Shown here piece after piece: positions 1,807-57,030 of a stretch of DNA of 64,000 bases (position 1 is its first letter; each line of letters starts with the position of its first letter). This stretch comes from Chiloscyllium plagiosum (taxonomy: Eukaryota). The translations under genes were made by a program, and so were the position numbers. The notes below the pieces were generated by a model that saw only the letters and a program-made list of their open reading frames with translations, did no database searches and had not been told where the DNA came from. The stretch lies in contig NC_057718.1 in assembly GCF_004010195.1 (NCBI RefSeq), forward strand, positions 95,685,158 to 95,749,157, written 5' to 3'.

Positions 1807-1989
1807 TGTGGAGGTGCCGATATTGGACTGGGGTGGACAAAGTCAGAATTCACATGACACTGGTTAAAGTCTGACAGGTTTATTTGAAACTGCAAGCTTT
1901 TCGAACCCTGCTCCTCAGCCTAACCTGTCTGAGGAAGGAGCTGGACTCTGAAAGCTTGTGGTTCCAAATAAACCTTTTGGACTATAACG
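1807..1989. mobile_element. Penelope-derived fold-back mini-element, family B, with hammerhead motif
   Basis: Imperfect inverted repeat; perfect 12-bp TSD tagtttgcaaga (1795-1806 / 1990-2001); + arm CTGAGGA-A-GGAG-ctgga-CTCT-GAAAG-CTT at 1929-1957. Confidence 0.85.
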
Positions 1990-2299
1990 TAGTTTGCAAG
2001 AGATACAAGGTGAATGATTCACTTCTAAAAGGTCTCTGAGTTACCAGTGAATAGTCACAGATTACAACAATTGCTGAAGGAGAGATGTACCTGATTTTCT
2101 TCAGGTTTAAAATGGGTTTGCAAAGAGGCAGCTTTTGCGCTGGTGGTGATCAAAACTCTCTTCGGGAAGTTGTTCCCAGCTCCTTGTTGTTCAGTTACCT
2201 GACTGCCAATCAGATGGCTGTTGGCAGGCGAAATTCTCTTGTCATCAATAACTGGCCACTACTCCTTGGCCCAATCAACTTCTTGTTGCCACCCAGCTG

Positions 2300-4195
2300 C
2301 ATTTGTACACACAACCCCTTGGCTTGGGTTCATCTGCAACCACTTCAATTACTGTTGGTTCAGACTGCAGTTTACACCACGCTTGCCATAAGTATTAGTT
2401 TACTTGCTTTTCAAAACATGTGGCAGTCCTTCAAAACACTGGTTTTAAAACAGTTCTTTCTCATTTCAGTCCACAATTATAAAAAAAAGACACAAAAATA
2501 AAAAGACGTGGCCCTTTTAAAGCAGATATTGCCGGATACTCAATCACTCGTCTGATTTTCACATGCAGCGCAAAGTCTGGTGAAGCCTGAAGGCCAACCC
2601 ATGCATACAGATGTGCAAGTCTGACTGAGGGCCCAGAATGGTCAACATCAACAAGTGTGACAACATTGACAAAATGCAGACTGCTCTGAATGATGGGTCT
2701 AAATTCATATCCAGCAGACCTGGCATGAAGCATAACCTGCACAGTCATGTTGAAAGCGTGTAGTAAAATTTTGTAAGAGTGATGAATTTCTGATGGCGTT
2801 TCATGGCTGTTGTTTCACTGCATCCACGTACGTATGGGTTGCCCAAAACACACATTAATGACGTCTTTATACCCTGTCTTGTCTATGACTGGTTTAGCAC
2901 ATTGGCTGAATGGTTGTATGAGTTTCTACAATCCGTTCTGGGCTGGTTTTTCATAAACAAGGTCAAGGATTCCTTCACCTTTGTGAAGACTATACAAGGC
3001 CTGCATATCGATAGCAATGCCATGACCGTGTGCTTGTTCAATGTTACAAGCCTGCGTTTAACATTGCTCCAGAAAGCCGTAGACATTTGTATTATGTCAC
3101 CATGTCTTGGCACTTTGAAAGCATCACAATTATCTAAGTCTGTAATCATTGAATTATGAACTTAGTAACTCGTACAGTTGAGTTCAGTTTTATAACATCA
3201 CGCCTGCCCAAATAAATGGTGTTCCCTTGGGATTCCCTCTATGCCCAGCCCTCACTAACAGTTCCATCAGTTCCCCTAAGAAACACTTGTTATTGGACTG
3301 AGCCCTCAGAGCCTACCCTTTACATATTCCCAATACATAAATGATACATTTGAATCTACAGCTGCATGTAAAAAGTTGTAAGTAGGGCTTGAGCCATTTG
3401 GTCAATACATAGGCTTAATACTGAAATGGAGTGTATTCTCTGGGATATTAGCTACCATAAACTGATCATTGATGATTGTGCAAATTCATGAATGAGAAGG
3501 CTAACATAATTGATTCAGGAAAGTGCCAGGTTATCTCAGAGTACCTTGGATGAGTAGGATACCTTAGAAAAATTGAACATCAGCCGAAGCTCACTTATGC
3601 TACAATACAGCAGCAACATAAGTGGTATTGTCCACTAACAGAATGCTGCCATCAAGCCAAAAAGACATTCTGCGACTACACAATGAAATAAATGAATTTC
3701 AACGCCAGGTAACTAGGCTGTATTATACCAACCAGCATGTCCCAGTTGACAATAGGCAGAGTATTGACCGTGCTCAACAAGGCTGTTCTTGCAAAACTCA
3801 GACGGTTGGCATAACATTAAATATGATTCTGCAATAGGACAATACTAACTTAAGATTGTCATTTGTGCACCATTTACACTTGCAGGAGGCTTTATATGTT
3901 CATTTTCAGGGCTCTGTCCTGGTGAAAACAAAAGTAATATGTCCACATATTGCACCTTTTTCAACAAAGCAAAACATAGGAAAAGAAGCACTCCCTGGTA
4001 CATTCACCATGAAAAAGCCTTAACCAATCAGACTCTACTTGTCAACCAATCCTTCTATCATGCAGTATAAATCGTTGTTCCCTTTGAAACCTGGTATTCT
4101 TGCAATTCTGTCCTGATGAGAGCAAAATGAAAACCTTCAACAGCAACACTTTTTCTCAACAATAGTATTGATCTGCGTGACTACCAAATGACTAC
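2300..4195 (+). mobile_element. Degenerate Penelope-like retroelement (RT and GIY-YIG remnants, 3' pLTR), family C
   Basis: ORF 2803-3159 PRTYGLPKTH...LAEWL...VKDSFTF...CLFNVTSL resembles PLE RT; QINGVPLGFPLCPALTN near 3205-3260 (cf. QIDGVAMGSPLGP); YINDTF near 3330-3350; STNRMLPSSQKD..EFQ linker/endonuclease start 3622-3720; hammerhead-like motif 4113-4138; 5' limit approximate. Confidence 0.85.
4109..4142 (+). ncRNA. Degenerate minimal hammerhead ribozyme motif (family C)
   Basis: tgtc-CTGATGA-gagcaaaat-GAAAA-cc-TTC-aaca; core boxes present, stems partly mutated relative to the 52596-52631 copy. Confidence 0.55.
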
Positions 4196-4832
4196 CTTAA
4201 GAAAGTTGTTGAATATAAAGGTGGTTACCTCAATGTTGTTTCACTGCATTGCTTAAAAAATAATAAATCATTTAACTAAAGAACTGTCCTATAAAAGGTT
4301 TCACAAAGCAGCTTGGATACTTAAAATTCCATAGCAGTGGAAGGAAAATGGATAAGCTCTGCTGACATTGCGAATGTTTCCAGGGAAATGTGTCCTATCT
4401 GTTATATGTGTGCATTTTACAGTTCTGTCAGGGAGTGTTACTTTATTGGTGGAGGCATTCCCACAAGGAAACAGGGGAATTGGTGCATCAGATATGCTTT
4501 CACCTTCTCCTATCAGCAGTTATCTGCACATGAAAAGTTGCCTTAAAACCGACTTGGTAGAATTATGAACAAGTGAGATTTGCTGCACTTGATTTGTAAG
4601 GTGAGAGTTATCCGGTGATGCTAAAGAGGGGACAGAACTGTACTTTCACATTTCTTAAAGTCTGGTCAATCAGCCAACTTGGTAGTTGGATCTGCCTCAT
4701 GAAAATTGTCCTGTACTGTGTTTCCATCAAGGTCACCATCCTCAGGAATGGGAATGGGACACTCTCACCCAGAAGTGATTTATAGAGCTTATTTTCTTCC
4801 CTGACTAAGTCATGGGGAAACGCACAGTGAAG

Positions 4833-5045
4833 TGTGATTGATTTATTATTGTCACATGTATCGAGATGCAGTAAAAAGTACTGTTTTGTGTGCTAACCAG
4901 ACAAACCATACCTTACATAAGTACATCAGAGTAATTGAACAGAATGCAGAATACAGTGTTACAGCTACAGAGAAGGTGCAAAGAAAGATCAACTCTAATG
5001 TATGAGATATCTGTTCATAAATCTAATAACAATGGGGAAAAAAAA
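4833..5045 (-). mobile_element. Rex1/Babar-type LINE 3' end
   Basis: 'tgattgatttattattgtcacatgta...cagtaaaaagta' is the reverse of the Rex1-type tail seen at 5260-5330. Confidence 0.65.
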
Positions 5046-5259
5046 TCGCTTCCTCCATATCATGTGTTGAAGGGTTCTCTGATGGTTGTTAAATTTCTCC
5101 TGTTAAAGGGGATGTCTGGGTGATTTGGGGATCTTTTATGAAGGCGATTGAAGATCTGGTCAAAGCAAAAGTTTTACAGATGGAGTTTGAATGCAGTGGA
5201 AATTGAGGAGATTTGGTGTGAGTTTTAAGAGCCAAAAGGAAGCGAAAGATCGGTCTCCA

Positions 5260-7700
5260 GTTGAATTGAATTGAATTGAATTGAATTGAATTTATTGTCA
5301 CGTGTCCCGAGGCACAGTGAAATGCTTTGTCTTACAAGCAATACAGGCAGATCATGGAGTTAAGTAGCATAGATAAGTAAATAACAGGTAAACAGCGGCA
5401 AAACCAAAAACACAGGTACAGGCAAATATTAAGAGTTGTGAGTCCATTCAGTATTCTAACAACACTAGGGTAGAAACTGTTACGAAACCGGCTGGTGCGT
5501 GTGTTCAGGCTTCTGTACCTTCTCCATGATGGTAGAGGTTGTAGAAAAACATTGCCAGGGTGGGATGGATCTTTGAGAATGCTGGCGGCCTTTCTTTGAC
5601 AACGGGCCTGGTAGATGGATTCTGTCGATGGGAAGTTGAGATTGTCCGGGCTGCGTTCACCACTCTCTGTAACCATCTCCAATCTTGAACGGGACAGTTG
5701 CCGTACCAGGTAATGATACATCCAGACAGAATGCTCTCGATGGCACATCTATAAAAGTTGGCAAGGGTATTCGCCGTCATGCCAAATTTCCTCAGCTGCT
5801 TGAGGACGAAGAGAATTGTTGGGCCTTTGTAACCAGTCTGTCTACATGAAGAGTCCAAGAAAGCTTTTTGTGGATGAGCTTGACACTCTCCACTTGTTCC
5901 ACCTCTGTTGCTGTTAATGTGTGTGTGTGTGTGTGTGTTGGGGGGGGGGGGGGGGGGGGGGGCATGGGTAACATCCCGCCAAAAGTCAATAATGGTTTCC
6001 TTGGTTTTGCCGGTATTGAGAGCTAGTTTGTTCTCAATACACCATTTTTCCAGATCTTCCACCTCCCGTCTGTAGTCTGTTTCATCACCATCTGAGATTC
6101 GACCGACTATGGTGGTGTCATCAGCGAACTTGTAAATGGCATTAGTCTGGTATTTGGCAACACAGTCACGGGTATACAGTGAGTACAGTAGGGGGCTGAG
6201 TACGCACCCCTAGGGGGCTCTGGTGTTGAGTGTTAGTGAAGATGTAACATTGTCCCCAATCTTCACTGATTGTGGCCTGTGCGTCAGGAAACTGAGGATC
6301 CAGTTGCAGAGAGTGGGGCTTAGTCCGAGATCACTAAGTTTAGTAATCAGTCTCAAGGAGATAATAGTGTAGAAGGCTGAACTTAGACAATGAGTAGGAT
6401 TCTTATGTAGCTGTTCTTGGTGTCAAGATGTTCTAGGGAGGAGTGAAGGCAAGTGATATGGCATCTGATGTGGATCTGTTGCTCCGATAGGCAAATTGGA
6501 GTGGGTCAAGAGTAGTGGGGAGGTTGGAGTTGATTAATACCATGACCAGCCTTTCAAAGCACTTCATGACCACCGAAGTTAGGGCCACTGGGCGGTAGTC
6601 ATTGAGACATGCTGCATGAGTCTTCTTAGGCACAGGGATGATGTTGGCCTTCTTGAAACAGGTAGGGACAGTGGCCTGCTGTAGGGAGAGGTTGGAGATG
6701 TCCGAGAAGACCTCTGCCAGTTGATCTGTGCATGCTCTGAGTGCACGGCGTGGTACTCCATCTGGTTCCATCACTTGGATTCACACGAAGGAAAACGGAT
6801 CTGACCTCTGATGCAGTGACTATTGGGACTTGTCAGAATAAGTGTTACCTCTCCACCAACATTCTGCTCAAAGTGAGCACAGAAGGCGTTGAGATGATCT
6901 GGGAGGGATGTGTCATCATCTGCTATCTTGCACTGTCTCTTTTTAGAATCTGTGATGTCATTCAGTCCTTGCCATAGTCACCAGGTGTCTATCTGGCTCT
7001 CTAGTTTGGATCGGTATTGGTCCTTGGCTGTCTTAATGGCTCTTGAAGGTCGTACTTGGATATTTGAGTGGGTCTCACACCTGGTTTTTAGCAGGTTCTG
7101 TATGTCCTGATTCATCCAGAGTTTCCTGTTGGGGAACACCCAGATTGAATTCCTCAGTATACAGCCCTCCACACACTTGCTGATAAAGTCTGTGACGGTG
7201 GTGGTGTACTTGTCCAAGGTACCTGCGGCCTGTTTGAACATGGCCCGATTAGCCAATTCCAGACAGCACCGGAGTTGATCCTCTGTCTCCTCCGACCAGC
7301 ACTGCACCTGTATCCACAAGGGAGTCTCTTGCTTGAGCTTTGGCCTGTAAGCCGGGAGAAGAAACATGGTATTGTGGTCGGAGTTCCCAAAATGAGGATG
7401 GAGAATGGAGCGGTAGGCATCCTTCACAGTGGTGTGGCAGTGGTTGAAAATGTTCGGACCCGTGTTGAGACAGGTAATGTTCTGGTGGTACTTGGACAAC
7501 ACCTTCCTTAGTTTGGCTTGATTGAAGTCACCAGTCACAATAAACAGGGCCTCGGGATGTTCCATCTCCAGGGTGTTGGTGGTGGAGTACAGCACATCCA
7601 GAGCTTCCTCAACCTTTGCTTGTGGTGGTTTGTACACAGCAGTTAGTATAGCAGCGGTAAATTCCTGTGGTAGGTAGAAGGGGCAGCATTTGATGGTGAG
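5260..7700 (-). mobile_element. Rex1/Babar-type LINE, 5'-truncated and frameshifted (APE end plus RT)
   Basis: ORF pieces VTGDFNQAKL (APE), [47 protein letters not shown] (about 6100-6135), LNTGKTKE, FYRCAIESIL, RTSRFRNSFYP; (ttcaa)n tail at 5260-5292. Confidence 0.92.
5918..5962. repeat. (TG)n microsatellite joined to a G homopolymer, inside the Rex1 element
   Basis: Direct reading: about 10 TG units followed by about 23 G. Confidence 0.95.
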
Positions 7701-7882
7701 GAATGGAATAGATGGGGCCTTGACAATTAGTCATTCAAAGCCAGACGAGAAAAGACGATATGGGCTGTGAGACGAGCCAAATAGTTTCATGGTTACAGTG
7801 CCGTTTGACCAATCCAGAGTTCGTGAGCTCAATAATATGTTGTGAAATTGAATTTAATAAATCTGACAATGTGTGGCTAGCA

Positions 7883-8328
7883 GGAAGTGAGGACTGCAGA
7901 TGCTGGAGAGCAGAGTCGAGAATGTGGTGCTGGAAAAGCGCAGCAGGTCAGGCAGCATCCGAGGAGCAGGAGAATCGATGTTTTGGGCATAAGCCCTTCA
8001 CCTGAATAAGGCTTGTGGGTCGGGGCTGAGAGTTAAATTGGGGGGGGTGGGGGGTGGTGGTGCGGTTGGGGGGATGTAACTGGAAAGCAATAGGTGGATG
8101 TAGGTGAGGGACAAGGTGATAGGAGGATGGTGCCGAGTTGGAGGCTTGGGACTGGGATAATGTGGATTTTAAGAGCTTCCTCATTTCCCCTTCCCCCACA
8201 TTATCCCAGTCCCAAGCCTCCAACTCGGATCCGAACCCGTCCATCACTGCCCCCTCCTACTTATCGATTCTCTGCTCCTCGGATGCTGCCTGACCTGCTG
8301 TGCTTTTCCAGCACCACACCCTCGAATC
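7883..8328. mobile_element. Penelope-derived fold-back element, family A
   Basis: Outer inverted arms plus a perfect 33-bp inner inverted repeat (8133-8165 / 8196-8228); 11-bp TSD tgtggctagca (7872-7882 / 8329-8339). Confidence 0.88.
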
Positions 8329-9169
8329 TGTGGCTAGCACCCATCAATGACATTAAGAGCTGCACTATTGCTGTAAACCCACAACTGGAATGTGTCGTCC
8401 CTGTGTGGGGCTGGCCTATGTGACTGCTGCCCCAGGCCAAGTGAATAGTTTTCAGTGGCCTTAGAGCAATTAATACAGTCTTTGCACTGTCGTCCCCGTC
8501 CCAACAACAGATTCAATATAGTAAAACTCAATTTATCCCTAAGAACGTATAGATTTAGTTGATTGTGAGTGTTACTGTATAAACTCTGTCACTGTCTTCT
8601 GCCCCAGGAAGTGACAGCACCTTCCCTGTGGCTAATAATTTTTGCAAGTTTTCCAAATGACATCTGAGTTTATTTATTTTTCTCTACATTTTGTGGAACT
8701 GTTAAAAACTTAACCACCGAATTGAGTTTTTAAAAAAATGCATAATGTGTTGATCAGCTGGTTGTTACACCAGAATTCCTCAGAATGAAGCTGTACAAAG
8801 TTATGCACTCCACACCTTGACTCACTAAGTCCCATTTCTGCACCAGTGTCATTTGCGCTAGATCTCCACTTTCTGTTAAATCCCAGGCCAACAATGCTGC
8901 AGAGAGCAAATGAAAAAGACTTAAAGAGGAACAAACAGCGGGTGATCAGGAGGCTCAATGTGACAGCTTGAAATTGAATTATGAGTTAGGCGGGTAACAG
9001 TGAGAGAGGGGGGAGCAGCACAATCCAACAGCCAGAGGATTAAAACCACATTTTCACTTTTGTGGTTTATGATGGGCTGAATGGCCTCCTTCTGTACAGT
9101 AACCATCCTCTGATTCCAATAACATCCAGGTTTTAAAGAACAAAGAGATCGAAAACCAAAACAACTTCA

Positions 9170-9555
9170 TGGAATAATAGCGTGGTGCAGAACAGCAGGG
9201 GCCATTTGGCCCATCACACCTGTGCCTGTAGCTCTGTAAGAAGTAGGAGAAAGTGAGGACTGCAGATGCTGGAGATCAGAGCTGAAAATGTGTTGCTGGA
9301 AAAGCGCAGCAGGTCAGGCAGCATCCAGGGAACAGGAGAATCGACGTTTCGGGCATAAGCCTGACCTGCTGCGCTTTTCCAGCAACACGTTTTCAGTTCT
9401 GTAAGAAGTAGCCAATTTGTTGGACTCTCTTGCTCTTTCCCATAGCTCTACACATTATTCCCCTTCACTTTTTAAACAATTATCACTTTTGAAAGTTACT
9501 ATTGATTCTACTTCCAATGCTCTTTCAGGCAGTGCAGTGTGGATCATCGCAACAT
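9170..9555 (-). mobile_element. Old CR1-type LINE 3' end, interrupted by a PLE mini-element
   Basis: 'ggccatttggcccatc' 3' stem-loop and 'ttgattctacttcca...tttcaggcagtgc' continue across the 9247-9401 insertion. Confidence 0.55.
9247..9401. mobile_element. Penelope-derived fold-back mini-element, family A
   Basis: Inverted arms with collapsed centre; TSD taagaagtag (9237-9246 / 9402-9411), extendable to 14 bp with tctg. Confidence 0.9.
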
Positions 9556-10237
9556 GAATATGAAGGTCCATGATAACCAGTGGACATAATGGATCAGTTC
9601 TCATAATGCACAAGCTTCCCTTCAGTGAGGGCAGACATCGATCATGCAATTCAAGATCACATCAGTGTGCAAGCACTGTGTAAGGAACGGAGTATTTGAT
9701 GATCTCAATACCTCGACACAACTGAGTCAAAAAAAATCATAAGATTCAATGATGAGTGAAATCGTACATGATTTTAACCTGGGGAAGTGGGAAGTGGAGC
9801 TTATCAATGCCAATGAAATAGTTAAGGAACTGTAGAAGGGCACAGACAAAACTGGGACATGAATAGAATAATGGCAGATGGAATGCGGTGTGTCAGCTGA
9901 AAGGTGCTGCACACTGATACAGTGTTGACCCCACACATACTTCACTGTCTGACCTGTCCACATTAGTGTCTCTCATCCAGATAAGGAATTCCTGTGTGCC
10001 CACCCTGTTCCCATATCCCTCCATTCTGTAGCTTTGACAGCTGGTTTTGCACAGTTGGAACTACATGATGCATTGGTACGAAAAGCCAATCAAGAGAAAA
10101 TTACATCTCAACCCTAAGTTCTGCACTCTTTAGTTTGTCAGAGTTCAGTCTTCATAACTTGCATGACACAGGCAGACTGTGAGAGCTGAACTGCTTGTCT
10201 CGAATCCGTGGTTGCCATGCTGCTTGTCAACCAGGTC

Positions 10238-10256
10238 CTCACCAGCAGGTGGCAGT
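10238..10256 (+). promoter_or_regulatory. Candidate CTCF-binding site
   Basis: ctcaCCAGCAGGTGGCAGt matches the vertebrate CTCF core CCASYAGRKGGCRS at all positions; motif only. Confidence 0.45.
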
Positions 10257-11294
10257 GACAGGAGATAGCGCTGTGTAAAGGGAATGTCTCTCTCCTGTGA
10301 GTCCTTTCGTGGGAGGGAGGGTGTCCTTGGCAGGTTTGGGGTAGCCTTACCAGACGGCATGAACAGCGGGCCAAAATGTGGGCAGAGGGAACAGCAGATG
10401 GAGGACGCAGTCTGTTGCTGCCTGGGAAACAGGTAAGGGGCAATTGGAGTGGAACTCCAGTGGACCATGATCAGGGAGGACAGTTCGGACAGGATGAATT
10501 CCCCCTCACCCCCAGGTTTGAGGTGGCCCAGGATAATGGCAGGACTGTTTGAGGGCTGACCAATCTGGTCCACATGTCTGAGGAGAACTACCAACAGGAG
10601 TACCACAAATGCCGAGCTTCTCCACTTTGTTTCCCTACTGCACTTCAAGTCTAATTTTAAGCCCAAACCCATTTTGAATGAGTAATGATGGGAGATTACA
10701 GAGAAAGGTTTGGGATGACTCCCCTTCAGTTCTGCTGAACATAAGGCATTCCTGCACCTATTATTTTACAAACAATTCTATCAATTTGAGACAAGGAGTT
10801 AAGCTCTCAGAGTCTTATTGTGTCATGCAATACTCATCAAAGTTTATTTTTAGGATAATCTTTTCTTGTGAATGTACTTAAATGATTGGAATTGGCTGAA
10901 CAGAGTATCACTGAGCTGTACGCATAGTGTCTTCCAACCACTTTTCCCTGTGTTACACTTCATTAGAGATTTTATCTGAGTGTCATGCACGGGTGTTGCA
11001 GTATTAGAGACACTCACAATCAGAAGGGCGTTTCTAGCTCAGGTAACTGAACTTTGTGCAGTAATGATTTATTTTATCCTTCTGTTAGCTGTTATCTTTA
11101 TTTCAGCATTACTTAGGTCTGTAGCTCCAGACACAATCATTGTATTTCCGTAACATCACCCCTGCCGTTGCAAATGGTGTTGACTATATTTGTTCCAATG
11201 AATATGTCCACTCGCTGTTTTAATGCAGGAAGATGAACCCCTCAACAAGACGAAGTGGCAGGCGGCTGATGTCGACTTGTGGGCACCCAGAAAT

Positions 11295-11530
11295 AAAGTG
11301 GTATAATGCAGACCACCATCACCCGCAAGTTCCCTCCAAGCCACACACTATCCTGACTTGGAAATATCTCGCTGCCCCTTGAATGTCACTGGGTCAAATT
11401 CCTGAAACTCCCTCCTAGCCCACAGATTGTGGTGATTCAAGAAGACAGCTCATGACCACCACCTTCTCAAGGACAATTAGGAATAGGCAATAAATGCTGG
11501 CCTAGACAATTATGCCTTCATCCACTGAAA
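11295..11530 (+). mobile_element. CR1-clade LINE (second tail type) 3' end
   Basis: 'ttcaagaagacagctca..caccttctcaaggacaattaggaataggcaataaatgctggcctag' tail, shared with the SINE at 19553-19895. Confidence 0.75.
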
Positions 11531-11909
11531 CTTTTTTATTCATTGATGGGGTGATGATTTTGCAGATATGGAATGATTAACAAAAAAAGGGTACGATTTG
11601 GACAAGGACAACTTCGACAAATGTGATTGTGTCGTATACTGGAACATGATATACACACAACATCCAGCTGTTGGCAGACAGCTATGCCTGTGTCTGAAGT
11701 TGCCACTGACCGAATGAGATCACCTTGGCTTTATTTATCAGGTAACTTGCACCTTATCCAACAGTTTCTCATTTGTTGCTTTCCAAATTGATAGGAGGAG
11801 AGGGTTGGGTACTTCCATCCAGCTTCAAGGAGTGCAGCACACGTTGACTCCATTGACTAAGGTGTCCATGTTTCCATTGGGATACATCCAATGATCCTGC
11901 AGCAAATGG

Positions 11910-12130
11910 AATCATAGAACTATAGAATCCCTAGTATGGAGCAGGCAATTCAGCCCATTGAGTCCACACCAAGCCTCCGAAGAGCATCCCACCCAGACCC
12001 TACCCCCCACCCTAATCCTGTAACCCCGCGTTTCGTGGTGAAATCACCTAACCTACATATCCCTGACACAGTGGGTAATTTAGCATGACCAATCTGCCTA
12101 ACCTGCACATCTTTGGACTGTGAGAAGAAA
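11910..12130 (-). mobile_element. HE1-type SINE, 3' part
   Basis: Reverse of 'cacagtccaaagatgtgcaggttagg...gctaaattacc' central domain and CR1-like tail. Confidence 0.85.
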
Positions 12131-12394
12131 CATATGCGAAGAAAAATTAGTTTGGTCTTTGACCACTGTAACCAATGCAGAACATTCTTGGCAGTTAAAC
12201 TAGTTTCTTCGGCAAATAGTCAACTATATTAAAACATTTCGAAGGAGCAGGATCAATGGCTGTTGACAGCCAGAAATACCCCCAGTATTGCATTATTGAC
12301 ATCAGCTTGAAACGTCATGGGCTTCTGAAAGAGAGAAAAGACCTGTATCCATCTCATATATTCTTGGCTTTCTGCAGCTGCTGGCTCATTCTTT

Positions 12395-12950
12395 TTTTTT
12401 ATTATTCATTCATGGGATGTGGGCGTTCCTGGCCAAGCCAGCATTTATTGCTCTTTGCTGAAAAATGTGTTGCTGGAAAAGCGCAGCATGTCAGGCAGCA
12501 TCCAAGGAGAAGGAGAATCGACGTTTCGGGCATAAGTCCTTCTCCTTGGATGCTGCCTGACCTGCTGCGCTTTTCCAGCAACACATTTTTCAGCTCTGAT
12601 CTCCAGCATCTGCAGTCCTCACTTTCTCCTAATTTATTGCTCTTTTCCAATTACCCTGGAAAAACCGGTGATGGGTTGCTCTCTTGAACCACTGACAGTC
12701 CCTAGAGGTGTAGGGACACCAACAGTGCTGTGATGGAGAGAGTTGTGCAATATTGACCCAGCAACACTGAAGGAATGGTGAACTATGATCTTCTCAGGAT
12801 GGTGTGTGGCTTGGGGGTGGACCTTTCAGCTGGTGGTTTTCCCACTTGTTTGCTGCCCTTGCCCTTCTAGGTAATAGATGTCTCTGGTTTGGAAGTTGTT
12901 TGCAAGGGAGCTTAGATAATGCAGTGCACACTGTAGGTGCTACAAAGCCA
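12395..12950 (-). mobile_element. CR1-clade LINE (second tail type) 3' end, interrupted by a PLE mini-element
   Basis: 'ttattcattcatgggatgtgggcgttcctggccaagccagcatttattgc' reverse tail; continues after 12645. Confidence 0.75.
12457..12631. mobile_element. Penelope-derived fold-back mini-element, family A
   Basis: Near-perfect inverted arms; perfect 14-bp TSD atttattgctcttt (12443-12456 / 12632-12645). Confidence 0.92.
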
Positions 12951-12973
12951 ACTGTAGAGTCACATTACTTGCA

Positions 12974-13290
12974 GTCATAGAGTCATAGAGATGTACAGCA
13001 TGGAAACAGACCCTTCGGTCTAACCTGTCCATACCGACCAGATATCCCAACCCAATCTAGTCCCACCTGCCAGCACCCGGCCCATATCCCTCCAAACCCT
13101 TCCTATTCATATACCCATCCAAATGCCTCTTAAATGTTGCAATTGTACCAGCCTCCACCACTTCCTCTCCCTGTAGCTCAAATCCTCCAACCCTGGCAAC
13201 ATCCTTGTAAATCTTTTCTGAACCCTTTCAAGTTTCACAACATCTTTCCAATTGGAAGGAGACCAGAATTGCACGCAATATTCCAACAGT
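12974..13290 (-). mobile_element. CR1/HER1-type LINE 3' end with internal deletion
   Basis: (agtcatag)n tail, 'acagacccttcggtc' stem-loop, reverse of LEYCVQFWSP..KDVVKLERVQKRFTRMLPGL. Confidence 0.88.
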
Positions 13291-17150: not shown

Positions 17151-17154
17151 GTCA

Positions 17155-17435: not shown

Positions 17436-17439
17436 TAAC

Positions 17440-19895: not shown

Positions 19896-19930
19896 TCACT
19901 TAGCCTATCTACTTGTGTAAATGATGATGT

Positions 19931-20104
19931 TGGAGAAAGTGAGGACTGCAGATGCTGGAGACCAGAGTTGAAAAATGTGGTGCTGGAAAAACACAGCAGG
20001 CCAAGCAGCAGCCGAGGAAGGGCTAATGCCTGAAACGTCGATTCTCCTGCTCCTCGGATGCTGCCTGGCCTGCTATGTTTCTCCAGCACCACATTTTTCA
20101 ACAA
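19931..20104. mobile_element. Penelope-derived fold-back mini-element, family A
   Basis: Inverted arms; TSD taaatgatga (19918-19927 / 20105-20114); partial hammerhead 'agggctaatgcctgaaacgtc'. Confidence 0.88.
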
Positions 20105-20809
20105 TAAATGATGAATTTGTTAGACTATTTTTTAAGGTTAAATTTATGGGGTCAACTATTACATGGATACCACTTTTGAGGGACTGAAATTAATGCTACA
20201 GTCCAAAATACCATATCATTAGCGGAAGCTCAATTGATCTCAAACGAATAAAGAAAAAAATCACAATGAATTACGGTAACTGTACGAGTGCTACAGGGGA
20301 ACTGAACTCAGCCGAGTTATTACACAAAGGGATGCATCTTAAACCTTCACCCCAAATTCTTCCATTTCCCTCCATTTTCTTTCCTCTACTGTTGTTTTAG
20401 TTTTTGAAAGTAACATCATAATCTTTTATTCCTGATAAAAAAGATATTAGACATTTGACATACAGTCTCACCAATCACTGCACGTCCAGTCAAATCCTAT
20501 ATGAAGGAAGGAAGGAATAAAAATCTCATTGTGCTGTGAAACAAGAGCAAAACTGTAATAGATCCGGGATACGGTAATTATACTGAAGTAAAAGCAAGTA
20601 GCATATGTTATATAGGAAATGATGGCACGATAACCTTTGTATCAGACTAATTATACTAATTATAGTTTGATAAGGAACTTAAGAAAGTCATAGCATAACA
20701 TTGGTGTGAATTATATGTCAAAAAACATATTAGCATGGAAAAACATTCATTTCCTCATTGTAACGTTTATGTACAGGAAAATACCTTGACTTACAAAAGT
20801 TGATCTGTT

Positions 20810-23974: not shown

Positions 23975-24413
23975 CAGGCAGTCCCCAAGTTGTAAATGGG
24001 TTCTGTTCTGGAATATCAGAGTCGAAGAGTGCATGCTGGAAAAGCACAGCCGGTCAGGCAGCATGCGAGGAGCAGGAGAATCCTTGTTTCGGGCATAAGC
24101 CCTTCATCGGGAATTCCTGATGAAGGGCTTATGCCTGAAACGTTGATGCTCCTGCTCCTCAGATGATGCTTTTCCAACACGCACTCTTCGACTCTGATCT
24201 CCAGCACCTGCAGTCCTCACTTTCTCCTTTCTTGAATATGTTCCCAAGTCAATTTGTACATAAGTTGAAACACGATGCGGGACAACATAAAGGAGTCATT
24301 TGTAAGTGTAGGAAATGTTCATGTGTTGGGTGTCTAAATTATACCCCAGTATGAGATAGCTTTCTTAAGTATCAGCATTCGTAAGTCAGACGTTTCTAAA
24401 TTGAGAACCCCTA
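23975..24413. mobile_element. Tigger/pogo-like MITE (Tc1-mariner superfamily), interrupted by a PLE mini-element
   Basis: TA|caggcagtccccaagttgtaaatg ... cgtttctaaattgagaaccccta|TA degenerate TIRs; internal 'cgtaagt' repeats. Confidence 0.6.
24017..24228. mobile_element. Penelope-derived fold-back mini-element, family A, with two opposed hammerhead motifs
   Basis: Palindrome centred on gaattc (24111-24116); + arm CTGATGA-A-GGGC-ttat-GCCT-GAAAC-GTT from 24117; TSD ttct(g/t)gaatat (24006-24016 / 24229-24239). Confidence 0.92.
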
Positions 24414-32205: not shown

Positions 32206-32302
32206 GTTCCTGATGAAGGGCTTTTGCCCGAAACATCGATTTTCCTGCTCCTTGGATGCTGCCTGACCTGCTGTGCTTTTCCAGCTCCACTCTAATCTAA
32301 AA
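32206..32302 (+). mobile_element. Penelope-derived single-arm insertion, family A (hammerhead plus 3' segment)
   Basis: ttc-CTGATGA-A-GGGC-tttt-GCCC-GAAAC-ATC-gatt; 10-bp TSD actgtatgtg (32196-32205 / 32303-32312). Confidence 0.9.
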
Positions 32303-33269: not shown

Positions 33270-33905
33270 TCTTTTCATCTAATTCACTCATGGCTCGTGG
33301 ACATCGCTGGCTGGGCCAGCAGTTTTTGCCCACCCCATAGCTGTCCTTGAGGAGATGGTGGTGGGTTGCCTTCTTGATCAGCTGCAGTCCACTTGCTGTA
33401 GAGAGACACACAATTCCATCACGCAGGGAGTTCAAAGTCTTTGCGGTCAATAAAATGCGGAGCTGGAAAAAGCACAGCAGGCCGAGCAGCCTCAGTAAAG
33501 CAGGTCCTGATGAAGGGTTCTGCCCGAAACGCTGATTCTTCAGCTCTTCTGATGCTGCTTGACCTGCTGTGCTTTTTCCAGCTCCACATTTTATTGACTC
33601 TGACTTTCCAGCATCTGCAGTCCTCACTATCTCCAAGTTCCAAGATTTTGACTCCGTGGCACTGTAGGGGCAGTGATGTGTGTCCAAGTCACAATGGTGA
33701 GTGGCTTGAATTTGGAACTTGCAGGTAGTGGTCTCCCTGTGGTATTGCTGCCCTTGTCCTTCTAGATGGTAGCAGTCATGGATTTAGAAGGTGTTGTGGA
33801 AGGAACTTTGTCGAATTTCTGCAATGCATTTTGGAGATGTTACACACAGCCACTACTGAGCATCGGTGATGGAGGGAATGAATGTTCATGGTTGTGGTGC
33901 CAATC
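33270..33905 (-). mobile_element. CR1-clade LINE (second tail type) 3' part, interrupted by a PLE mini-element
   Basis: Homologous to 12395-12950 and 63455-64000. Confidence 0.75.
33445..33634. mobile_element. Penelope-derived fold-back mini-element, family A variant
   Basis: Inverted arms; CTGATGA-A-GGG-ttctg-CCC-GAAAC at 33507-33530; diverged TSD agttcaaagtctttg / agttccaagattttg. Confidence 0.85.
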
Positions 33906-39181: not shown

Positions 39182-39990
39182 TCATGCACAAACACATATA
39201 AGTTTGTGGGGTGAATCTGTACGTGCAGAATTACATTTTACTTTGCTCAAAAACTACATGAATCCATGTAAGATTTTGTAAATCTTGCAGGGTGGCACTG
39301 TGGCTCAGTGGTTAGCACTGCTGCCTCACAGCACAGGGTCCTAGGTTCAATTCCAGCCTCGGGTGACTTACTGTCTGAGTTTGCACATTCTTCCCCATAT
39401 CTGCAAGAGTTTCCTCTGGGTGCTTCAGTTTCCCCTCACAATCCAAGGATGTGTAGATCAGGTGAATTGGCCATGCTAAATTGCCCATAGTGTTAGATGC
39501 ATTAGTCCGAGAGAAATGGGTCTGGGTGGGTTACTCTTCGGAGGGTCAGTGTGGACTGGTTGGGCTGAAGGGCCTGTTTCCACACTGTAAGGAATCTAAT
39601 CTAAATCCCTTTTTTAGATTAGAATCAGTCCAACCATTGTGGCACAGACAGTCTCACATAGGGAAGCTCACACCTTCAATACATTATCTGGGCCAACATG
39701 ACACCAATTGTTAAAGTTCACTTGAGAAAGTAACTTTTAAAAAAGTTTGTGATTTACATATGAAAGAACTGAAACCAATGTGGTCATTCTAACAGATGAG
39801 AGACTTAACAAACAATCCAGGTCTTTTTCAACATATAATTTCAGTTACATCACACTGTGAACTTTTGCTATAAATTCTGTGTCCTACAATCTTATACTCC
39901 ACAACTACCCGATGAAGGAGCAAAGCTCCGAAAGCTAGTGCTTCCAGTTAAACCTGTTCGACTATAACCTGGTGTTGAGTCATTTTTAAC
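39182..39990 (+). mobile_element. Penelope-like element 3' region (family B) with nested HE1 SINE
   Basis: Ends in tac-CCGATGA-A-GGAGC-aaa-GCTCC-GAAAG-CTA-gtg (39906-39940) and 'cctgttcgactataacctggtgttgagtcatttttaac'. Confidence 0.8.
39289..39605 (+). mobile_element. HE1-type SINE nested in a PLE
   Basis: A-box tggctcagtgg, B-box ggttcaattcc, (tctaa) tail; 'taaatc' on both sides. Confidence 0.92.
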
Positions 39991-44303: not shown

Positions 44304-44306
44304 GAT

Positions 44307-44855: not shown

Positions 44856-45055
44856 AAAGTCAGAAGTCACACGACACGGTTATAATCCAACAGGTTTATT
44901 TGAAGTCACAAGCTTTCGGAGCACTGCTCCTTCATCAGTTGAAGCCATTGCGGAGTTCCGAAAGCTTGTGATTTGAAATGAACCTGTTGGACTATAACCT
45001 GGTGTTGTGTGACTTCTGACTTTGTCTGCCCCAGTCCAACACTGGCACATCATGG
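44856..45055. mobile_element. Penelope-derived fold-back mini-element, family B
   Basis: Inverted arms; minus arm CTGATGA-A-GGAGC-agt-GCTCC-GAAAG-CTT (44910-44938) has an intact core; approximate TSD tac..tttttaa. Confidence 0.88.
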
Positions 45056-46544
45056 CTACGTCTTTTTAAGAGACTTCAGCAAACAGTGAGAGACAGGGCA
45101 GTAATATGACAAAGCATGGAGATGGCTTTTAAGATTTCAGCCAGTGTATATGAAATCCTACAAAAATCCAGAAGTTTTTGTTTTTGCTTCTGATGTCCAA
45201 CATCCACAATCCTTTTGTATTTTTATGAAATCCTGTGCAATGCAGTCTCTCATGATAGGCAGCAGGTTGGGAGCAAAGAATTCACATACATTAGCAATTT
45301 TTCTGATATATATGAGTATCCTGTAGGGCAGTGATAAAGCTGAGAGAGACCGGGCTTAATGTAACTTCTCTGAGTGGGCCACTGAGCCTAGAGGGAGAGT
45401 GGAGGCGTGATCTTCTCATTTTGCATTCCCAGCCTTGAATGGCCATGATCTCCTTTGTAAAGCAGTAAGGTAGAATGCGACATCTCCTGCCGAGTGGAGT
45501 CTGCACTGATTCCACCCTCTCACTCTCAGGGTGGGTGTAAATGTGGATGACCTATGCAGGGCAGGCTCTGCCACCATGCCTGACATTGCGCGTAGTCTCA
45601 GCCCTGTCCACATCAAAGTGCGGCGTCTTGGCTCCAGACAACTATGTGACATGTTCAAGGGTTGCTGACGTCTGATGCTATCTGCAGTCAAGGAGTTCAT
45701 TGCCTGTGAGACATGATCAATGTTTGTGCACTACAATTTCTTCCATGCTTTTGGGTGACTGAAGAGGAGGCTCATGTGACAAAAAGCTGAGCGTCACCAG
45801 TTACGAAGAGACCACAGCACTCATTTCAAGAATATTAATGAGCATATGTTTCCATAAGTGCACTAATATTTGCAATGAAGTGTTATCCGTGCCATCTATG
45901 TGTCCTCAGTAAGTATTTTTCTCTTCATTTCCCTCCCACTACGTCTATGTGCAGTCCCAGCACCTGCAAATAAGGTGGAGGGAGCATTCTCTTAAGTTGG
46001 CATCCCTGGCCTGGGCTGGTTGTCCCCACTGTCATTTGAGTCTAGAGGGCCCAGCCTAGATACATGCTCATGGTCCTCATCTTGAGCTTCAGCAGATTTC
46101 AGCTTCACAGGCAATGAGATGGTGAAGAAGCTCTGGAATGTTCCATGAGGAAGCCTCTGGCAGGCCTATATGTAGCTCTGTCTGAGTGCCTATTGACCCC
46201 AACCTGTCTACTGGAGAGGAAGAGACAACTACAGTGCATTCCCCACCCACTCCCAATCTCGCCTTTGATGCTGCCATCATTGACTTAAGTGAGGGCAACA
46301 GTCTTGGCCCTATCACCTGGCTGTGAGAGACTTTGTTCCTGTCATGATGCAAAGGGATGGTTTGATTATTTTGGAGGTGGATGGGAGAGGCATTATTGGT
46401 GTTACAGGGGGCAGAAGAAATGGTGACATGTTCTCCATGAGTGAGAGAGTGTGTGGAGGGCACAAAGGGTTAGAAGATTGGCAGGACGAGGTGGGCGAGA
46501 GCTATTGAGTAGACATGGTGCAAGCAATACTAGTGATTACAGTC

Positions 46545-47142
46545 CAACAACGCCTCTTCTTCCTTGGACATCTCAGGAAATTTGGCATGTCTATAAGGAC
46601 CCTCATCAGCTTTTATAGATGCACCATTGAAAGCATACTGTCCAGATGCATAACAACCTGGCACAGCAACTGCTCTGCTCAGGACTGTAAGAAACTACAG
46701 AAGGTGGTGTGCACAGCCCAGGCACTCACAGAAGCCAACCTCCCATCCGTGGACTCCATTTACACATCTCGCTGCCGCGGAAAGGCTGCCAATATCATCA
46801 AAGACCCATCTCACCCAGGTAATACTCTCTTACAACCTCTTCCGTTCGGCAGGAGGCACAAAAGCTTCAATGCAGGCACCAGCAAGCTCAAGAACAGCTT
46901 GTTCCCTGCCGCTATTGGACTGATGAATTGACCTCTCGACTTCAAATAATGTTGATCATGTTAATGTTGACCTTGCCTCATGTATGTCCTGTGTGGCGTA
47001 ACCTGTATGCCTTACTCTGCCCAAGTTTTATTTTAACCCTGTGATCTGTACATCCTTGCTTACTATGATCTGCCTATACCGCTCATAAACAAAGCTTGAC
47101 GTCGTACATACCGACCCGTGACAATAAATCAAATCAAATCAA
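46545..47142 (+). mobile_element. Rex1/Babar-type LINE 3' fragment
   Basis: ORF 46515-46931 QQRLFFL..LRKFGMS..FYRCTIESIL...KDPSHPG; (aaatc)n tail. Confidence 0.9.
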
Positions 47143-48375: not shown

Positions 48376-49023
48376 AAGCATTTTTCTCCTTAATGGGATA
48401 GCTCAGTTTCTGGACATTTCTGGGTCCTTTTAACCACCAACCACCGCCACCCACCTCCCCCCCCCACCCCCCCAGAAAGTTGCTTTTGGATTGGACGGTT
48501 CATTAAAGTCTGAGACAGGGGCCCAAACAACTTTTAAAAGAGGGGAGACACAGATCTGGTAATAAGTACATTCTGAAGAGGCAGGTTGGTTGTTGAAAGC
48601 TTTCAAAGTGGCTGCATGCTTTTATCTTCAGAGAGTTTCTCTTTTTGATCAATTTCGGATGCGTTTCCTGGGTTACGATAAATCTGGCAGGTAAATAGAA
48701 AATCATTTAATTTTACAGCGTTGCATGTGGTCCAGGCTGACATAACATTTCTGACTCAAAACAACTTATAAACATCCCGTGTTGATAAAAACCCATCACT
48801 GACCCCTTTCACCATCGATGACCACAATCCTAATCACCTGTCCAGCTAGTTCTCACAACCATTATTCCCCCAATTCCCACCCCGACCTTGTTTAACTCTG
48901 AACAGCACTTGGTAAGTAGGAGACCAGAAGACAATCTCTATTCAATCTTTTGTTTATTCACTGACTGCAGCATTATAGGTCTTAACTGATACTTCTTTAC
49001 TTGTGTCAATAGGTGCTTCTGAA

Positions 49024-50510
49024 GGGCTGTGTGATGGCTCAGTGGTTAGCACTGCTGCCTCACAGCGCTTGGGACTTTCCGAAAGCCTTTGATAAGGTCC
49101 CACATAGGAGATTAGTGAGTAAAATTAGGGCACATGGTATTGGGGGTAAAATACTGACTTGGATTGAAAATTGGCTGGTTGACAGGAAGCAAAGGTAGTG
49201 ATAAACAGGTCACTTCGGAATGGCAGGCGGTGACCCAGTGGGGTACCACAAGGTTCGGTGCTGGGATCGCAGCTGTTTACAGTATACACTAATGATATCG
49301 ATAAAGGCATTTAAAGTAATATTAGCAAATTTGCTGATGACACAAAGCTGGGTGGCAGGGTGAAATGTGAGGAGGATGTTATGAGAATACAGGGTGACTT
49401 GGACAGGTTCGGTGAGTGGACAGATGCATGGCAGATGCAGTTTAATGTGGATAAATCTACTTTGGTAGCAAGAACAGGAAGGCAGATTACTATGTAAATG
49501 GAGTCAAGTTAGGTAAAGGGGAAGTATAATGAGATCTAGGTATTCTTGTACATCAGTCAATGAAAGCAAGCATGCAGGTACAGCAGGCAGTGAAGAAAGC
49601 TAATGGCATGCTGACCTTCATAACAAGAGGAATTGAGTATAGGAGCAGAGAGGTCTTTCTGCAGTTGTCCAAGGCCCTGGTGAGACCACACCTGGAGTAT
49701 TGTGTGCTGTTTTGGTCTCCAATTTTGAGGAAGCACATTCTGGCTATTGAGGGAGTGCCGCGTAGGTTCACAAGGTCAATTCCCGGAATGGCGGGACATT
49801 CATATGTTGAAAGATTGGAGCGACTGGGCTTGTACACACTTGAGTTTAGAAGGATGAGAGGGGATCAGATTGAGACGCATACGTTTATTAAAAGATTGGA
49901 CACTCTGGAGGTAGGAAGCATGTTTCTGCTGATGGGTGAGTCCAGAATCAGAGGACGCAGTTTAAAGATAAAGGGTAGGCCATTTAGAACAGAGTTGAGG
50001 AGAATCTTCTTCACCCAGAGAGTGGTGGGTGTATGGAATGCTCTGCCCCAGAAGGCAGTGGAGGCCCAGTCTCTGGATACTTTCAAGAAAGAGTTGGATA
50101 GAGCTCTTAAATATAGTGGAATCAAGGGATATTGGGATAAGGCAGGAACAGGATACTGATTAAGGATGATCAGCCATGATCATAGTGAATGATGGTGCTG
50201 GCTTGAAGGGCTATATGGCCTACTCCTGCACCTATTGTCTATTGACCAGGGTTTGATTCCTGCCTCAGGTGACTATCTGTGTGGAGTTTGCACATTTTCC
50301 CCGTGTCTACATGGGTTTCCCTTGGGTGCTCCAGTTTCCTCCCACAATCCAAATATGTGCAAGTTAGATGAATTGGCCATGCTAAATTGCCCACACTGTT
50401 GAGGGATGTGTTGGTTAGGTGTATTATTTTGGTTAAATGTAGGGGAATCGGTTACTCTCCAGAGGGTCAGTATGGACTTGTTGAGCCAAATGGCCTGTTC
50501 CCGCACTGCA
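49024..50510 (+). mobile_element. HE1-type SINE split between A and B boxes by a CR1 insertion
   Basis: Head 49024-49072; resumes at 50245 'accagggtttgattcc'. Confidence 0.88.
49072..50244 (+). mobile_element. CR1/HER1-type LINE, 5'-truncated RT to 3' end
   Basis: DFPKAFDKVPH, GVPQGSVLG, KFADDTKL, ORF 49560-50159 VRPHLEYC...FFTQRVVGVWNALP; (ctattgt) tail. Confidence 0.93.
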
Positions 50511-50550
50511 GGGCTTGTATTCTCATTCATTGTATTATCCTTTCAATAAA

Positions 50551-51028
50551 TAGAGTCATAAAGATACACAGCACAGAAACAAATCCTTCAGTCCATGCTA
50601 ACCAGATATCCTAGATTAATCTAGTCCCATTTTCCAGCATTTGGCCCATATCCCTCTAAACCCTTCCTGTTCATGTACACATCCAAATGCCGTTTTCAAT
50701 ATTGTAATTGTACCAGCCTTCACCACTTCCTCTGGCAGCTCATTCCATACATGCACCACTCTCTGAGTGAAAACATTGCCCCTTAGGTCCCCTTTAAATC
50801 TTTCCCTTTTCACCCTAAACCTATGCCCTCTAGTTCTGGACTTCCTCACCCCAGGGAAAAGACCTTGTCTATTTACCCTACCCATGCCCCTCATGGTTTT
50901 ATAAAACCCTATAAGGTCACCCCTCAGCTCCAGGGAAAACAGCCCCAGCCTATTCAGCCTCTCCCTTTTGCTCAAACCCTCCAACCCTGGCAACAACCTT
51001 GTAAATCATGTCTGAACCCTTTCAAGTT
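50551..51028 (-). mobile_element. CR1/HER1-type LINE 3' fragment
   Basis: ORF 50616-50996 MLPGLEGL...RTRGHRF...FTQRVVHVWNELP. Confidence 0.9.
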
Positions 51029-52571: not shown

Positions 52572-52790
52572 GGGTATTGCTGGACAAAGACATATTTATC
52601 GAAGCTTTTCATTTTGCACTCATCAGGACAATTCGCAAGAATGGCAGTGTAAGGGGAAACCAGTATTTACGCTGTAAGAGAGGTCTGTGCTGATTTGTCG
52701 GCAAGTCAGTGCTGATGAAGAGACTCTTGCTGAAAAGCTTTGAGAAAAATGTGTTTTTTTTTAGCAATTAACTGTTTTTAGTGCGACCTT
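52572..52790. mobile_element. Penelope-derived fold-back remnant, family C
   Basis: Minus arm 52572-52710 and a degenerate + arm 'ctgatgaagag..gaaaagctttgag..ttttttagcaat'. Confidence 0.7.
52596..52631 (-). ncRNA. Minimal type-I hammerhead ribozyme motif (family C), near-intact
   Basis: UUGUC-CUGAUGA-GU gcaaa AU-GAA-AAGCUU-C-GAUAA: stem I 5 bp with one G.U, 2-bp stem II, palindromic AAGCUU stem III. Confidence 0.7.
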
Positions 52791-55298: not shown

Positions 55299-55447
55299 GA
55301 AAGTCACCATAGTCCCACTCTTTCATGAGAGAGGTGGTGGTTTGACCCAAGGGTCATCACACCTCAGGCGAAAGGCAAGATTCATAGCAACCTCAGCTGG
55401 ACACACGTCGTGCCCCACAATGCATTGCAAACCAGCCATCTTAGCCA
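55299..55447 (-). mobile_element. Degenerate tRNA-SINE of another family
   Basis: 'aaagtcaccatagtccc...ggtggtggtttgacccaagggtcatcacacctcagg...gcaaaccagccatcttagcca'. Confidence 0.45.
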
Positions 55448-56272
55448 CGCGATTGCTTTGTCAGTTGGAACAGTTAAGGCAGTGATACTTGCAACTTTTA
55501 AAAGAAAATTCAATGAATGCTAGGCTCCAAAGAAGATAAATGGCCTTGAGATCATCTCAAGGCAGTGGGATTTTTTAGGTATCAAAGACTGCACAGGCCT
55601 AATATATCAGTGTTCTCATTTTGTGCAGTAAATGTTAATGATCAAATGCTCCTATGGCATTGGAAAAGTCACACCATTCACTGAAAATGGTGTGACTTAG
55701 TGCAGATCAAAATGCAAAGACAAAACCCTTCCCCCAGTACAAAAGAGAAGTCAAAGTAGCACAACCTAACTATTGTTACACCAATGTCCTTCAAGTAGAG
55801 GCAACAGATTGTACGTCTTACAACAAAAGCTGCACCTGAATTATGTCAGTGCTTAATGACCTGGGAATTAGAAAACTTGACCTCTTAGCTTTTTAGATGA
55901 CTTAATGGACGAAAATCTATGCCCTGTGTGACACTGAGCCGCACCGATTACGAAAGAGCATTGTTCCATCTCATCTCTACGTGGTTACTCGATCTCAGCT
56001 GGACTGCACTGAAGTTGGCCTCAGTGCCAGGGAGGGCAATAATCAGACAGGATTCTGCTCCTGATTGCTGTCCCATGCTGGAATTGTGTGCAGCTGTGTT
56101 GCAATCCACTGTCAAAAGGTCTGAAGGGACTCACCATCGAGAATCATACATGAAAAATGGGGTAACAGAGGTTAAAGGCATCACCAGAACTGTATCTTCA
56201 CACAAGCCAGTTTGTGACACTGCCTGTATTGTTTGTTTCATTGATTCTAATATCCAAGTCGTGCCTTTGATC

Positions 56273-56323
56273 TTACTACCTCATTAACTATCTCATTACT
56301 ACCTCATTAACTATCTCATTACT
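56273..56323 (+). repeat. Tandem duplication, 23-bp unit x2.2
   Basis: ttactacctcattaactatctca repeated perfectly. Confidence 0.95.
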
Positions 56324-56559
56324 TTGCTCCAAAAAGAAAACAGTTTGTTTTGTTGTATAAAGATCAATGTGCTGAGGTTTAACTCCCTCTGACCAATACT
56401 TCCTGGCAATGAAGGGCAGTTTCCTTTCTCATAAGTTGCAAATTGCTATCTTTCGACTAAAAATTGCACTTCATAAAATCAAGGCTCACTTCCTGCTTGT
56501 TAAGATGTTAAGGAGCTGTTATTATGGGATGGTTCAAATCAGATTGGGTGCGTTCCAAA

Positions 56560-57030
56560 CATTTCTTTTGCATTCGTGAGGTGCTGGCATCACTTGGCAA
56601 GGCCCCACGTTTATTGCGTGCCCCTTGCTACCCTTAAGAAAGTTATAGTCCGAGCAGCTTTCTTGAAGCGCTGCAGTCCATTTAATGGAGTTAAAAATCA
56701 CACAACACCAGGTTATAGTCCAACAGGTTTAATTGGAAGCCTTCATCAGGTGAAGGAGCAGCGCTCCAAAAGCTAGTGTGCTTCCAATTAAACCTGTTGG
56801 ACTATCACCTGGTGTTGTGTGATTTTTAACTTTGTACACCCCAGTCCAACACCAGCGTCTCCAAACCGTTTAATGGAAGGACTCTCGCAGTGCCATCAGG
56901 CATGGAACTTCACTCCATGTTTCTGATCAGCCAGGCTGGTGTGTGGACTGGAGAGAAGCTTACATTTGTTGGAAGCACCGTGTATGTGTTGGCCTTGTCG
57001 GCCCAAGTGGTAGACATTGCCAGTTTGGGT
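56560..57030 (-). mobile_element. CR1-clade LINE (second tail type) 3' part, interrupted by a PLE mini-element
   Basis: 'catcacttggcaaggcc..tttattgc...ttcttgaagcgctgcagtcca' reverse tail. Confidence 0.65.
56690..56865. mobile_element. Penelope-derived fold-back mini-element, family B
   Basis: About 50-bp near-perfect inverted arms; TSD cc(a/g)tttaatgga (56678-56689 / 56866-56877). Confidence 0.9.

Follow-up and report, generated by a model that had tools for sequence, protein, structure and literature searches.

A 64,000-nucleotide stretch of the Chiloscyllium plagiosum genome (RefSeq assembly GCF_004010195.1, contig NC_057718.1, forward-strand positions 95,685,158 to 95,749,157; hereafter the window, numbered from its first letter) contains short palindromic insertions in which two copies of the terminal segment of a Penelope-like element (PLE) face each other head to head. 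These insertions, designated here as fold-backs, are very probably of PLE origin. We consider it probable that each was built anew at its own insertion event, both nicked target strands priming reverse transcription of a PLE RNA. Fold-backs are most likely a very short and very abundant form of a known PLE insertion structure and not a new mobile family.

Self-comparison, a repeat finder and direct reading confirmed head-to-head local inverted repeats at nine of nine loci for which an earlier note, prepared from the sequence alone, had reported at least nine palindromic insertions of two opposed arms. Six fold-backs belong to family A (starting at 7883, 9247, 12457, 19931, 24017 and 33446) and three to family B (1807, 44856 and 56690). 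They measure 150–450 bp, have arms of 40–290 nt and occur about once per 7 kb of the window, which holds at least 16 family A arms. The nine loci stand, but solo arms and a tenth, 1.9-kb fold-back were missing from that inventory (Table 1).

The outer ends of the fold-backs are fixed at two sites. Positions are given on a scale on which the first C of the CUGA hammerhead core is +1, with cut points placed by eye and accurate to a few bases. A tail, that is, the long end, is present on one arm in all nine fold-backs, while the other arm is 31–37 nt short in eight and 56 nt short at 1807; the description of one full-terminus arm and a partner usually some 30–35 nt shorter fits. All six family A fold-backs have an inverted truncated copy and an end difference of 31–37 nt, with short ends at +91 to +95 (six of six short arms) and long ends at +123 to +128. 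In family B, the short ends lie at +82, +85 and +61 and the long ends at +117 (differences of 32, 35 and 56 nt), the true long end running about 12 nt further than the terminus motif first proposed. Solo family A arms end at +91 in three of three cases, as cut by eye, and the solo arms at 32206, 61267, 63175 and 39990 all stop at the short end. Because partnerless copies stop there too, the short end is an end in its own right. Towards the centre, the arm with the greater reach ends between −12 and +9 in eight of the nine fold-backs and continues into an open reading frame (ORF) at 7883. In every fold-back, an arm extends across the ribozyme cut site, located near +28; the template RNA was therefore uncleaved.

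The fold-backs are flanked by direct repeats. About 2,900 flank pairs drawn at random from the window served as the reference for scoring; the longest perfect chance match among these was 9. The fold-back ends were placed by eye, a procedure that favours a flank-repeat match. Five of nine loci have perfect repeats (12 bp at 1807, 11 at 7883, 14 at 9247, 14 at 12457 and 10 at 19931, the last extending to 15 bp if two mismatches are allowed), and two have repeats with one mismatch (24017, 11 bp, p 0.002; 56690, 12 bp, p 0.0007). The claim of 10–15 bp flanking repeats, several of them perfect, is borne out at these loci but is weak at 33446 (9 bp, one mismatch, p 0.04) and 44856 (13 bp, two mismatches, T-rich, p 0.002). 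The repeats vary from 10 to 14 bp and do not have the fixed length typical of DNA transposons. AT content of the flanks was 62% vs. 57%.

An empty site demonstrates the origin of the repeat at 9247. Public runs covering 7300–13300 carried two main organism codes, and four of the 24 listed runs were mapped onto 7760–12950. In two runs of a related organism, from two studies, one contig each (X11 record 5 and X13 record 10) covers 8298/8299–9232 and then 9398 onward, gap-free in contig coordinates. The 165 nt skipped are accounted for by the element (151 bp) and one of the two copies of its 14-bp flank repeat. Since the empty site retains a single 14-bp copy, the flank repeat is a true target-site duplication (TSD) made on insertion, and the single-copy empty site sought by the earlier note was thus obtained at this one locus. 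Contigs from a second sample of the same organism as the window reach 10 and 24 nt into the 9247 element, below a 31-letter threshold, and so only suggest that the element is present there. The related organism shares the right junction of 7883, where one run provides a 31-nt bridge; this insertion is therefore older. No contig piece among the 24 shown of 417,465 bridged the 12457 site.

Family A is continuous with a PLE-type ORF that has a C-terminal GIY-YIG domain with a CC..H motif. When its two stops are read as X, the frame at 61860–62180 shows 61% identity to a protein named as Chiloscyllium punctatum and 44% identity to an 894-aa protein (two hits among seven candidates). Both proteins carry reverse transcriptase (RT) and GIY-YIG matches, the Pfam hits being weak and near or below the cut-off. 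GIY-YIG DNA lies broken upstream of family A ends; RT is not in the window copies and is known from homologues. A Pfam search with four short broken frames found GIY-YIG only, in one of the four (E 0.017, below the cut-off). With the C. punctatum protein as query, 808 relatives were retrieved; among those with names, shark and ray proteins were the closest. The centre of 7883 contains the last codons of the GIY-YIG ORF (8159–8233) and a 7-nt shared junction; it encodes C-terminal residues matching the shark PLE proteins P0003 and P0008, the latter continuing into a hammerhead-type segment that resembles the family A arm (compared by eye). A CX2-5CxxC linker precedes GIY-YIG at 61860–62180 and in 118 of 121 fetched homologues. 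This linker marks Neptune and Nematis and is absent from Penelope/Poseidon (PMC8557442; here and below, cited statements refer to the portions of each source that were available). Judged by this motif, shared with Nematis, the family A parent is putatively a Neptune-type PLE. Family B is likely of PLE origin as well, given its hammerhead and tail spacing. The proposal that the arms match the termini of RT/GIY-YIG-coding PLEs is thus supported by coding continuity for family A but is only likely for family B. Viral, prokaryotic and metagenome collections contained no exact match to the family A and B motifs. An expansion of Penelope-like elements has been described in the whale shark (preprint).

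The centres differ among all nine fold-backs. Junction overlaps, determined by eye, are 7 nt at 7883, 3 at 9247, 5–6 at 12457, 2 at 19931, 2 at 24017, 0 at 33446, 1–2 at 56690 and 1 at 44856, and are unclear at 1807. For 15 of 18 arms (family A, 10 of 12; family B, 5 of 6), the nearest of all arms is the partner within the same fold-back. Sequence similarity between partners ranges from 77% in the decayed arms of 1807 to 57 of 58 positions at 12457. In four fold-backs (1807, 7883, 12457 and 19931), the arms are not nested, each having sequence that the other lacks, and neither arm is therefore a plain DNA copy of the other. Independent generation at each insertion, as the earlier note favoured, fits the different centres and the kinship of the partners best.

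The hammerhead is less well preserved than the ends. A pattern search matched a relaxed core in four of nine fold-backs (1807, 19931, 24017 and 44856), and an intact core is absent in five, so that calling the insertions ribozyme-bearing was an overstatement. The family A motif, lost or cut in four of six fold-backs, also occurs in the solo copies at 32210 and 61330 and at 24117. Family B cores lie at 39909, 44910 and 1929, the best preserved being that of 44856 (44910–44938, minus strand), and a 24-nt gap in the left arm of 56690 spans the hammerhead. Monomer folds of five hammerhead and two tail regions were no more stable than shuffled sequences (z −1.6 to +1.3), only helix II forming, and the tail-region folds gave no support for an AC-rich stem-loop at the start site. 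Within a head-to-head pair, the long hairpin is likely to trap the core. Among 23 Rfam matches, all below the gathering score and mostly to microRNA hairpin models on the palindromes, there was no hammerhead family. The microRNA-model matches are matches of shape only. Fold-backs can therefore mislead annotation, as they score as microRNA-like hairpins or resemble miniature inverted-repeat transposable elements (MITEs).

We propose that a fold-back would form in four steps. The GIY-YIG endonuclease would cut the two target strands 10–15 nt apart, and the resulting duplication is seen at 9247. From each 3′ end, synthesis would then begin at one of two internal sites separated by about 35 nt, yielding a tailed and a tail-less arm; the two fixed ends, found in solo copies too, are consistent with this double priming. 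Synthesis of both complementary DNAs (cDNAs) would end prematurely, in most cases close to the front of the hammerhead, a point that may correspond to the 5′ end of the RNA template. Finally, the cDNA ends would pair via 0–7 shared bases, as the junction overlaps suggest, and be filled in. Most products would, by this account, be dead on arrival. A lizard (anole) PLE protein, PAc, behaves similarly in vitro: it cuts both target strands and extends them, has a predicted dimeric form, and starts at two internal RNA sites, the spacing of which equals the tail, on an uncleaved template RNA (PMC11167929). Its start site at ORF +111 to +118 (PMC11167929) corresponds to +117 to +124 on the present scale, close to the long ends of family A. 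The likeness extends to two ends a tail apart, an uncleaved ribozyme site that is crossed and AT-leaning flanks.

Several observations weigh against double priming as the general route. The empty site was seen at one locus only, no tblastn match of 121 PLE proteins lay near any family B copy, and neither a tail nor a TSD was seen for the large unit at 61267–63175. The arms of 24017 rank each other 14th and 9th of 14, aligning poorly around a 14-nt gap, despite having variants in common, and the right arm of 1807 ranks its partner last of six. In three fold-backs (9247, 24017 and 33446), the short arm lies wholly inside the long arm, as snap-back would give, and nesting is marginal in two others of the nine. 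Post-insertion deletion at the centre of a hairpin could also produce variable, microhomology-bounded centres. PAc belongs to the Poseidon clade, whereas the family A parent has a Neptune/Nematis linker, and the in vitro work on the two-primer step concerns PAc (PMC11167929). Finally, three fold-back junctions recur in public contigs at depths of 295–1789 vs. about 10 for single-copy DNA (tens to about 190-fold).

These recurrent junctions leave some room for a mixed origin. Summed contig depth over the arm bins is about 2–3 million, vs. about 10 in unique DNA, although this depth is not a copy number. The contigs contain 3157 joints, of which 15 were displayed, some uncounted. Among those displayed, joint 7976>8281 has depths of 1533 (X5) and 1789 (X13); 7995>8274 has 577 (X11), 295 (X13) and 9 (X5), being uneven between the two organisms; and 7965>8272 has 432 (X5). 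Together they are a very small share of the summed arm depth and could reflect microhomology hot spots, tandem or segmental copies, or real re-mobilisation. A single-cell polyA run, about 2% of which was read, contained repeat parts only; 98% of the reads continued into other loci, with no common start or end. There is a small chance that a Neptune-type PLE protein copies some ready-made hairpin units again, so that these form a non-autonomous class resembling MITEs, the bulk being run-off products of two priming events close to the RNA 5′ end. If true, this would constitute a very large natural record of a double-priming step so far described in vitro.

An unlikely source of the fold-backs is single priming followed by snap-back, that is, self-priming of one cDNA, with later tip deletions varying the centre. 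Palindromes at junctions led one study to propose self-priming for PLEs of a rotifer (PMC3846280), and this route would agree with partner arms being nearly always each other's closest match, with the three nested short arms and with the symmetric centre of 24017. However, a plain snap-back could have given the four fold-backs with non-nested arms only if their centres were later struck by a deletion. These four include the young 12457, the nearly identical arms of which have had little time for deletion. The short end, found in partnerless solo copies too, behaves as a start site rather than as the stopping point of a copy-back.

It is still less probable that the fold-backs as a whole are one or more non-autonomous hairpin families, transcribed and moved ready-made by a PLE protein, the alternative that the earlier note had left standing. 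PLE derivatives of that kind are known (PMC8557442; bioRxiv 10.64898/2026.07.22.740005), and the three recurrent joints, identical centres in many copies, are what such a family would leave. This support is thin, as even the best joints are a tiny share of the arm depth in each bin, and hot spots, tandem arrays or segmental copies give such depth too. Moreover, no centre is common to any two of the nine fold-backs, and their arms follow different subfamilies.

The high density of family A arms might suggest that fold-backs are two separate insertions side by side, or assembly artefacts, but we regard this as very improbable: one repeat pair encloses both arms, partner arms have variants in common, the 7883 right junction is bridged in a run of another organism, and both explanations are contradicted at 9247, where a single skip removes both arms. 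MITEs of a DNA transposon, with terminal inverted repeats moved cut-and-paste by a transposase, are likewise short, palindromic, dispersed and very abundant, yet such an identity is scarcely credible because the ends are asymmetric, differing by about 35 nt, the TSD length varies, the arms are continuous with GIY-YIG coding DNA, and solo arms have their own flank repeat.

Table 1. Positions of fold-backs and related family A and B copies in the window
Feature	Position	Strand	Description
Family B fold-back	1807..1989		Tail on left arm; perfect 12-bp repeat 1795-1806 / 1990-2001
Family A fold-back	7883..8328		Tail on left arm; 11-bp repeat 7872-7882 / 8329-8339
Family A fold-back	9247..9397		Tail on left arm; 14-bp TSD 9233-9246 / 9398-9411
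Family A fold-back	12457..12631		Tail on right arm; perfect 14-bp repeat 12443-12456 / 12632-12645
Family A fold-back	19931..20104		Tail on left arm; perfect 10-bp repeat 19918-19927 / 20105-20114
Family A fold-back	24017..24228		Tail on right arm; symmetric centre just upstream of hammerhead core; 11-bp repeat, one mismatch
Older family A fold-back	33446..33634		Tail on right arm; weak flank repeat
Family B fold-back	44856..45056		Tail on right arm; weak flank repeat
Family B fold-back	56690..56865		Tail on right arm; 12-bp repeat with one mismatch 56678-56689 / 56866-56877
Solo family A arm	32206..32300	+	From just before hammerhead core to short end; flanked by two 10-bp repeat copies
Longer solo family B copy, 3′ end	39895..39990	+	Ends exactly at short end
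Large family A head-to-head unit	61267..63175		Junction near 62203; broken GIY-YIG coding sequence in both arms

The large unit is the tenth fold-back. It is interrupted by other repeats, both of its outer ends are at the short site, and its arms of several hundred bases form a length continuum with the nine short fold-backs. No flank repeat was found for the solo family B copy. A solo arm of a divergent family A-like subfamily lies at 23845–23945; it starts just before the core, has a different helix II and possibly an 11-bp flank repeat with one mismatch. A joint from 12629 to 9245 brings family A ends together tail to tail within one contig (33, 21 and 5 contigs), and such pairs may be neighbouring independent insertions.

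Further hammerhead-like sequences were observed in the window. In the long arm of 7883, an apparent micro-inversion of 4–6 bases at the front of the core (7995–8012) destroys the core. A third, older hammerhead-bearing repeat family, with copies 72–88% alike, is present at 640–742, 4083–4182, 52590–52659 and 63271–63339; a related core at 52712 is oriented away from that at 52602, possibly an old fold-back. At 48573–48631, two opposite-strand hammerhead-like cores converge on a common 10-base palindrome at the cut-site position, a layout that is the reverse of the usual head-to-head arrangement and occurs in a single copy within the window. A pyrimidine tract ending in AG about 10 bases before a hammerhead core (63060–63085) resembles a 3′ splice site, speculatively; in Drosophila Penelope, an intron ends at helix I (PMC4209133).

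Other repeats include many SINE-like (short interspersed element-like) copies, and frames at 5332–7730, 46509–46931 and 49533–51005 that we take to be broken reverse transcriptase and endonuclease frames of LINE (long interspersed element) type. Inverted repeats of 47 bp (85%), about 580 bp apart, surround a 206-codon stop-free frame at 10159–10830, possibly an old DNA transposon; this region is also covered by contigs of the related organism. The assembly has a gap at 21032–21770.

The fold-backs recall several known systems. In L1 twin priming, the second target strand primes as well, the inversion junction shows short microhomology and the TSD lies outside. L1 twin priming copies neighbouring parts of the RNA, whereas both arms of a fold-back copy the same part. 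Non-LTR (non-long terminal repeat) retrozymes are likewise non-coding, PLE-derived and hammerhead-containing (bioRxiv 10.64898/2026.07.22.740005), but we rejected this identity: retrozymes are head-to-tail tandems with a hammerhead per unit, whereas fold-backs are single head-to-head pairs with a relaxed core in four of nine. The minimal hammerheads of metazoan PLEs share with the present ones the CUGANGA core, an extra base before helix II and four palindromic bases after GAAA; they occur as opposite-strand pairs 100–700 bp apart and as thousands of solo motifs from truncated PLEs (PMC4209133). Unlike the present analysis, the available text of that study does not analyse TSDs or arm asymmetry and does not name sharks. 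Similarly, fold-back products are not discussed in the available text of the PAc study (PMC11167929). In a literature search that did not extend to most subscription journals or to the repeat databases, and in which most hits were judged from their listing, nothing emerged that deals specifically with miniature PLE fold-backs bounded by TSDs in sharks, or with twin priming in PLEs.

The architecture itself, an inverted copy with a tail and a TSD, has already been described, and the two-primer step is what we infer in addition. Typical Penelope insertions have adjacent inverted pseudo-long terminal repeats (pLTRs), a 31-bp tail on one repeat and a TSD of 9–10 bp (PMC3846280); the same layout is given for PLEs at large (PMC8557442), and inverted pLTRs and 3′ extensions are regarded as PLE peculiarities (PMC8969392). 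Published accounts of how the inverted copy and tail arise diverge, self-priming being proposed in one paper (PMC3846280) and two start sites with two-strand priming in vitro in another (PMC11167929). Since fold-backs are very abundant and small enough for a single short read to span both ends, the centre and the TSD, counting could tell these models apart. They can also serve as presence/absence markers between related sharks. Canonical endonuclease-bearing PLE units have an inverted 5′-truncated copy, a 30–40 bp tail and an 8–10 bp TSD (PMC3846280; PMC8557442). Fold-backs differ from these in being without the whole body, in their short arms and TSDs of 10–14 bp, and in their density, but resemble them in the head-to-head arms, the tail on one arm, the variable TSD, the heavy 5′ truncation and the hammerhead in the repeat.

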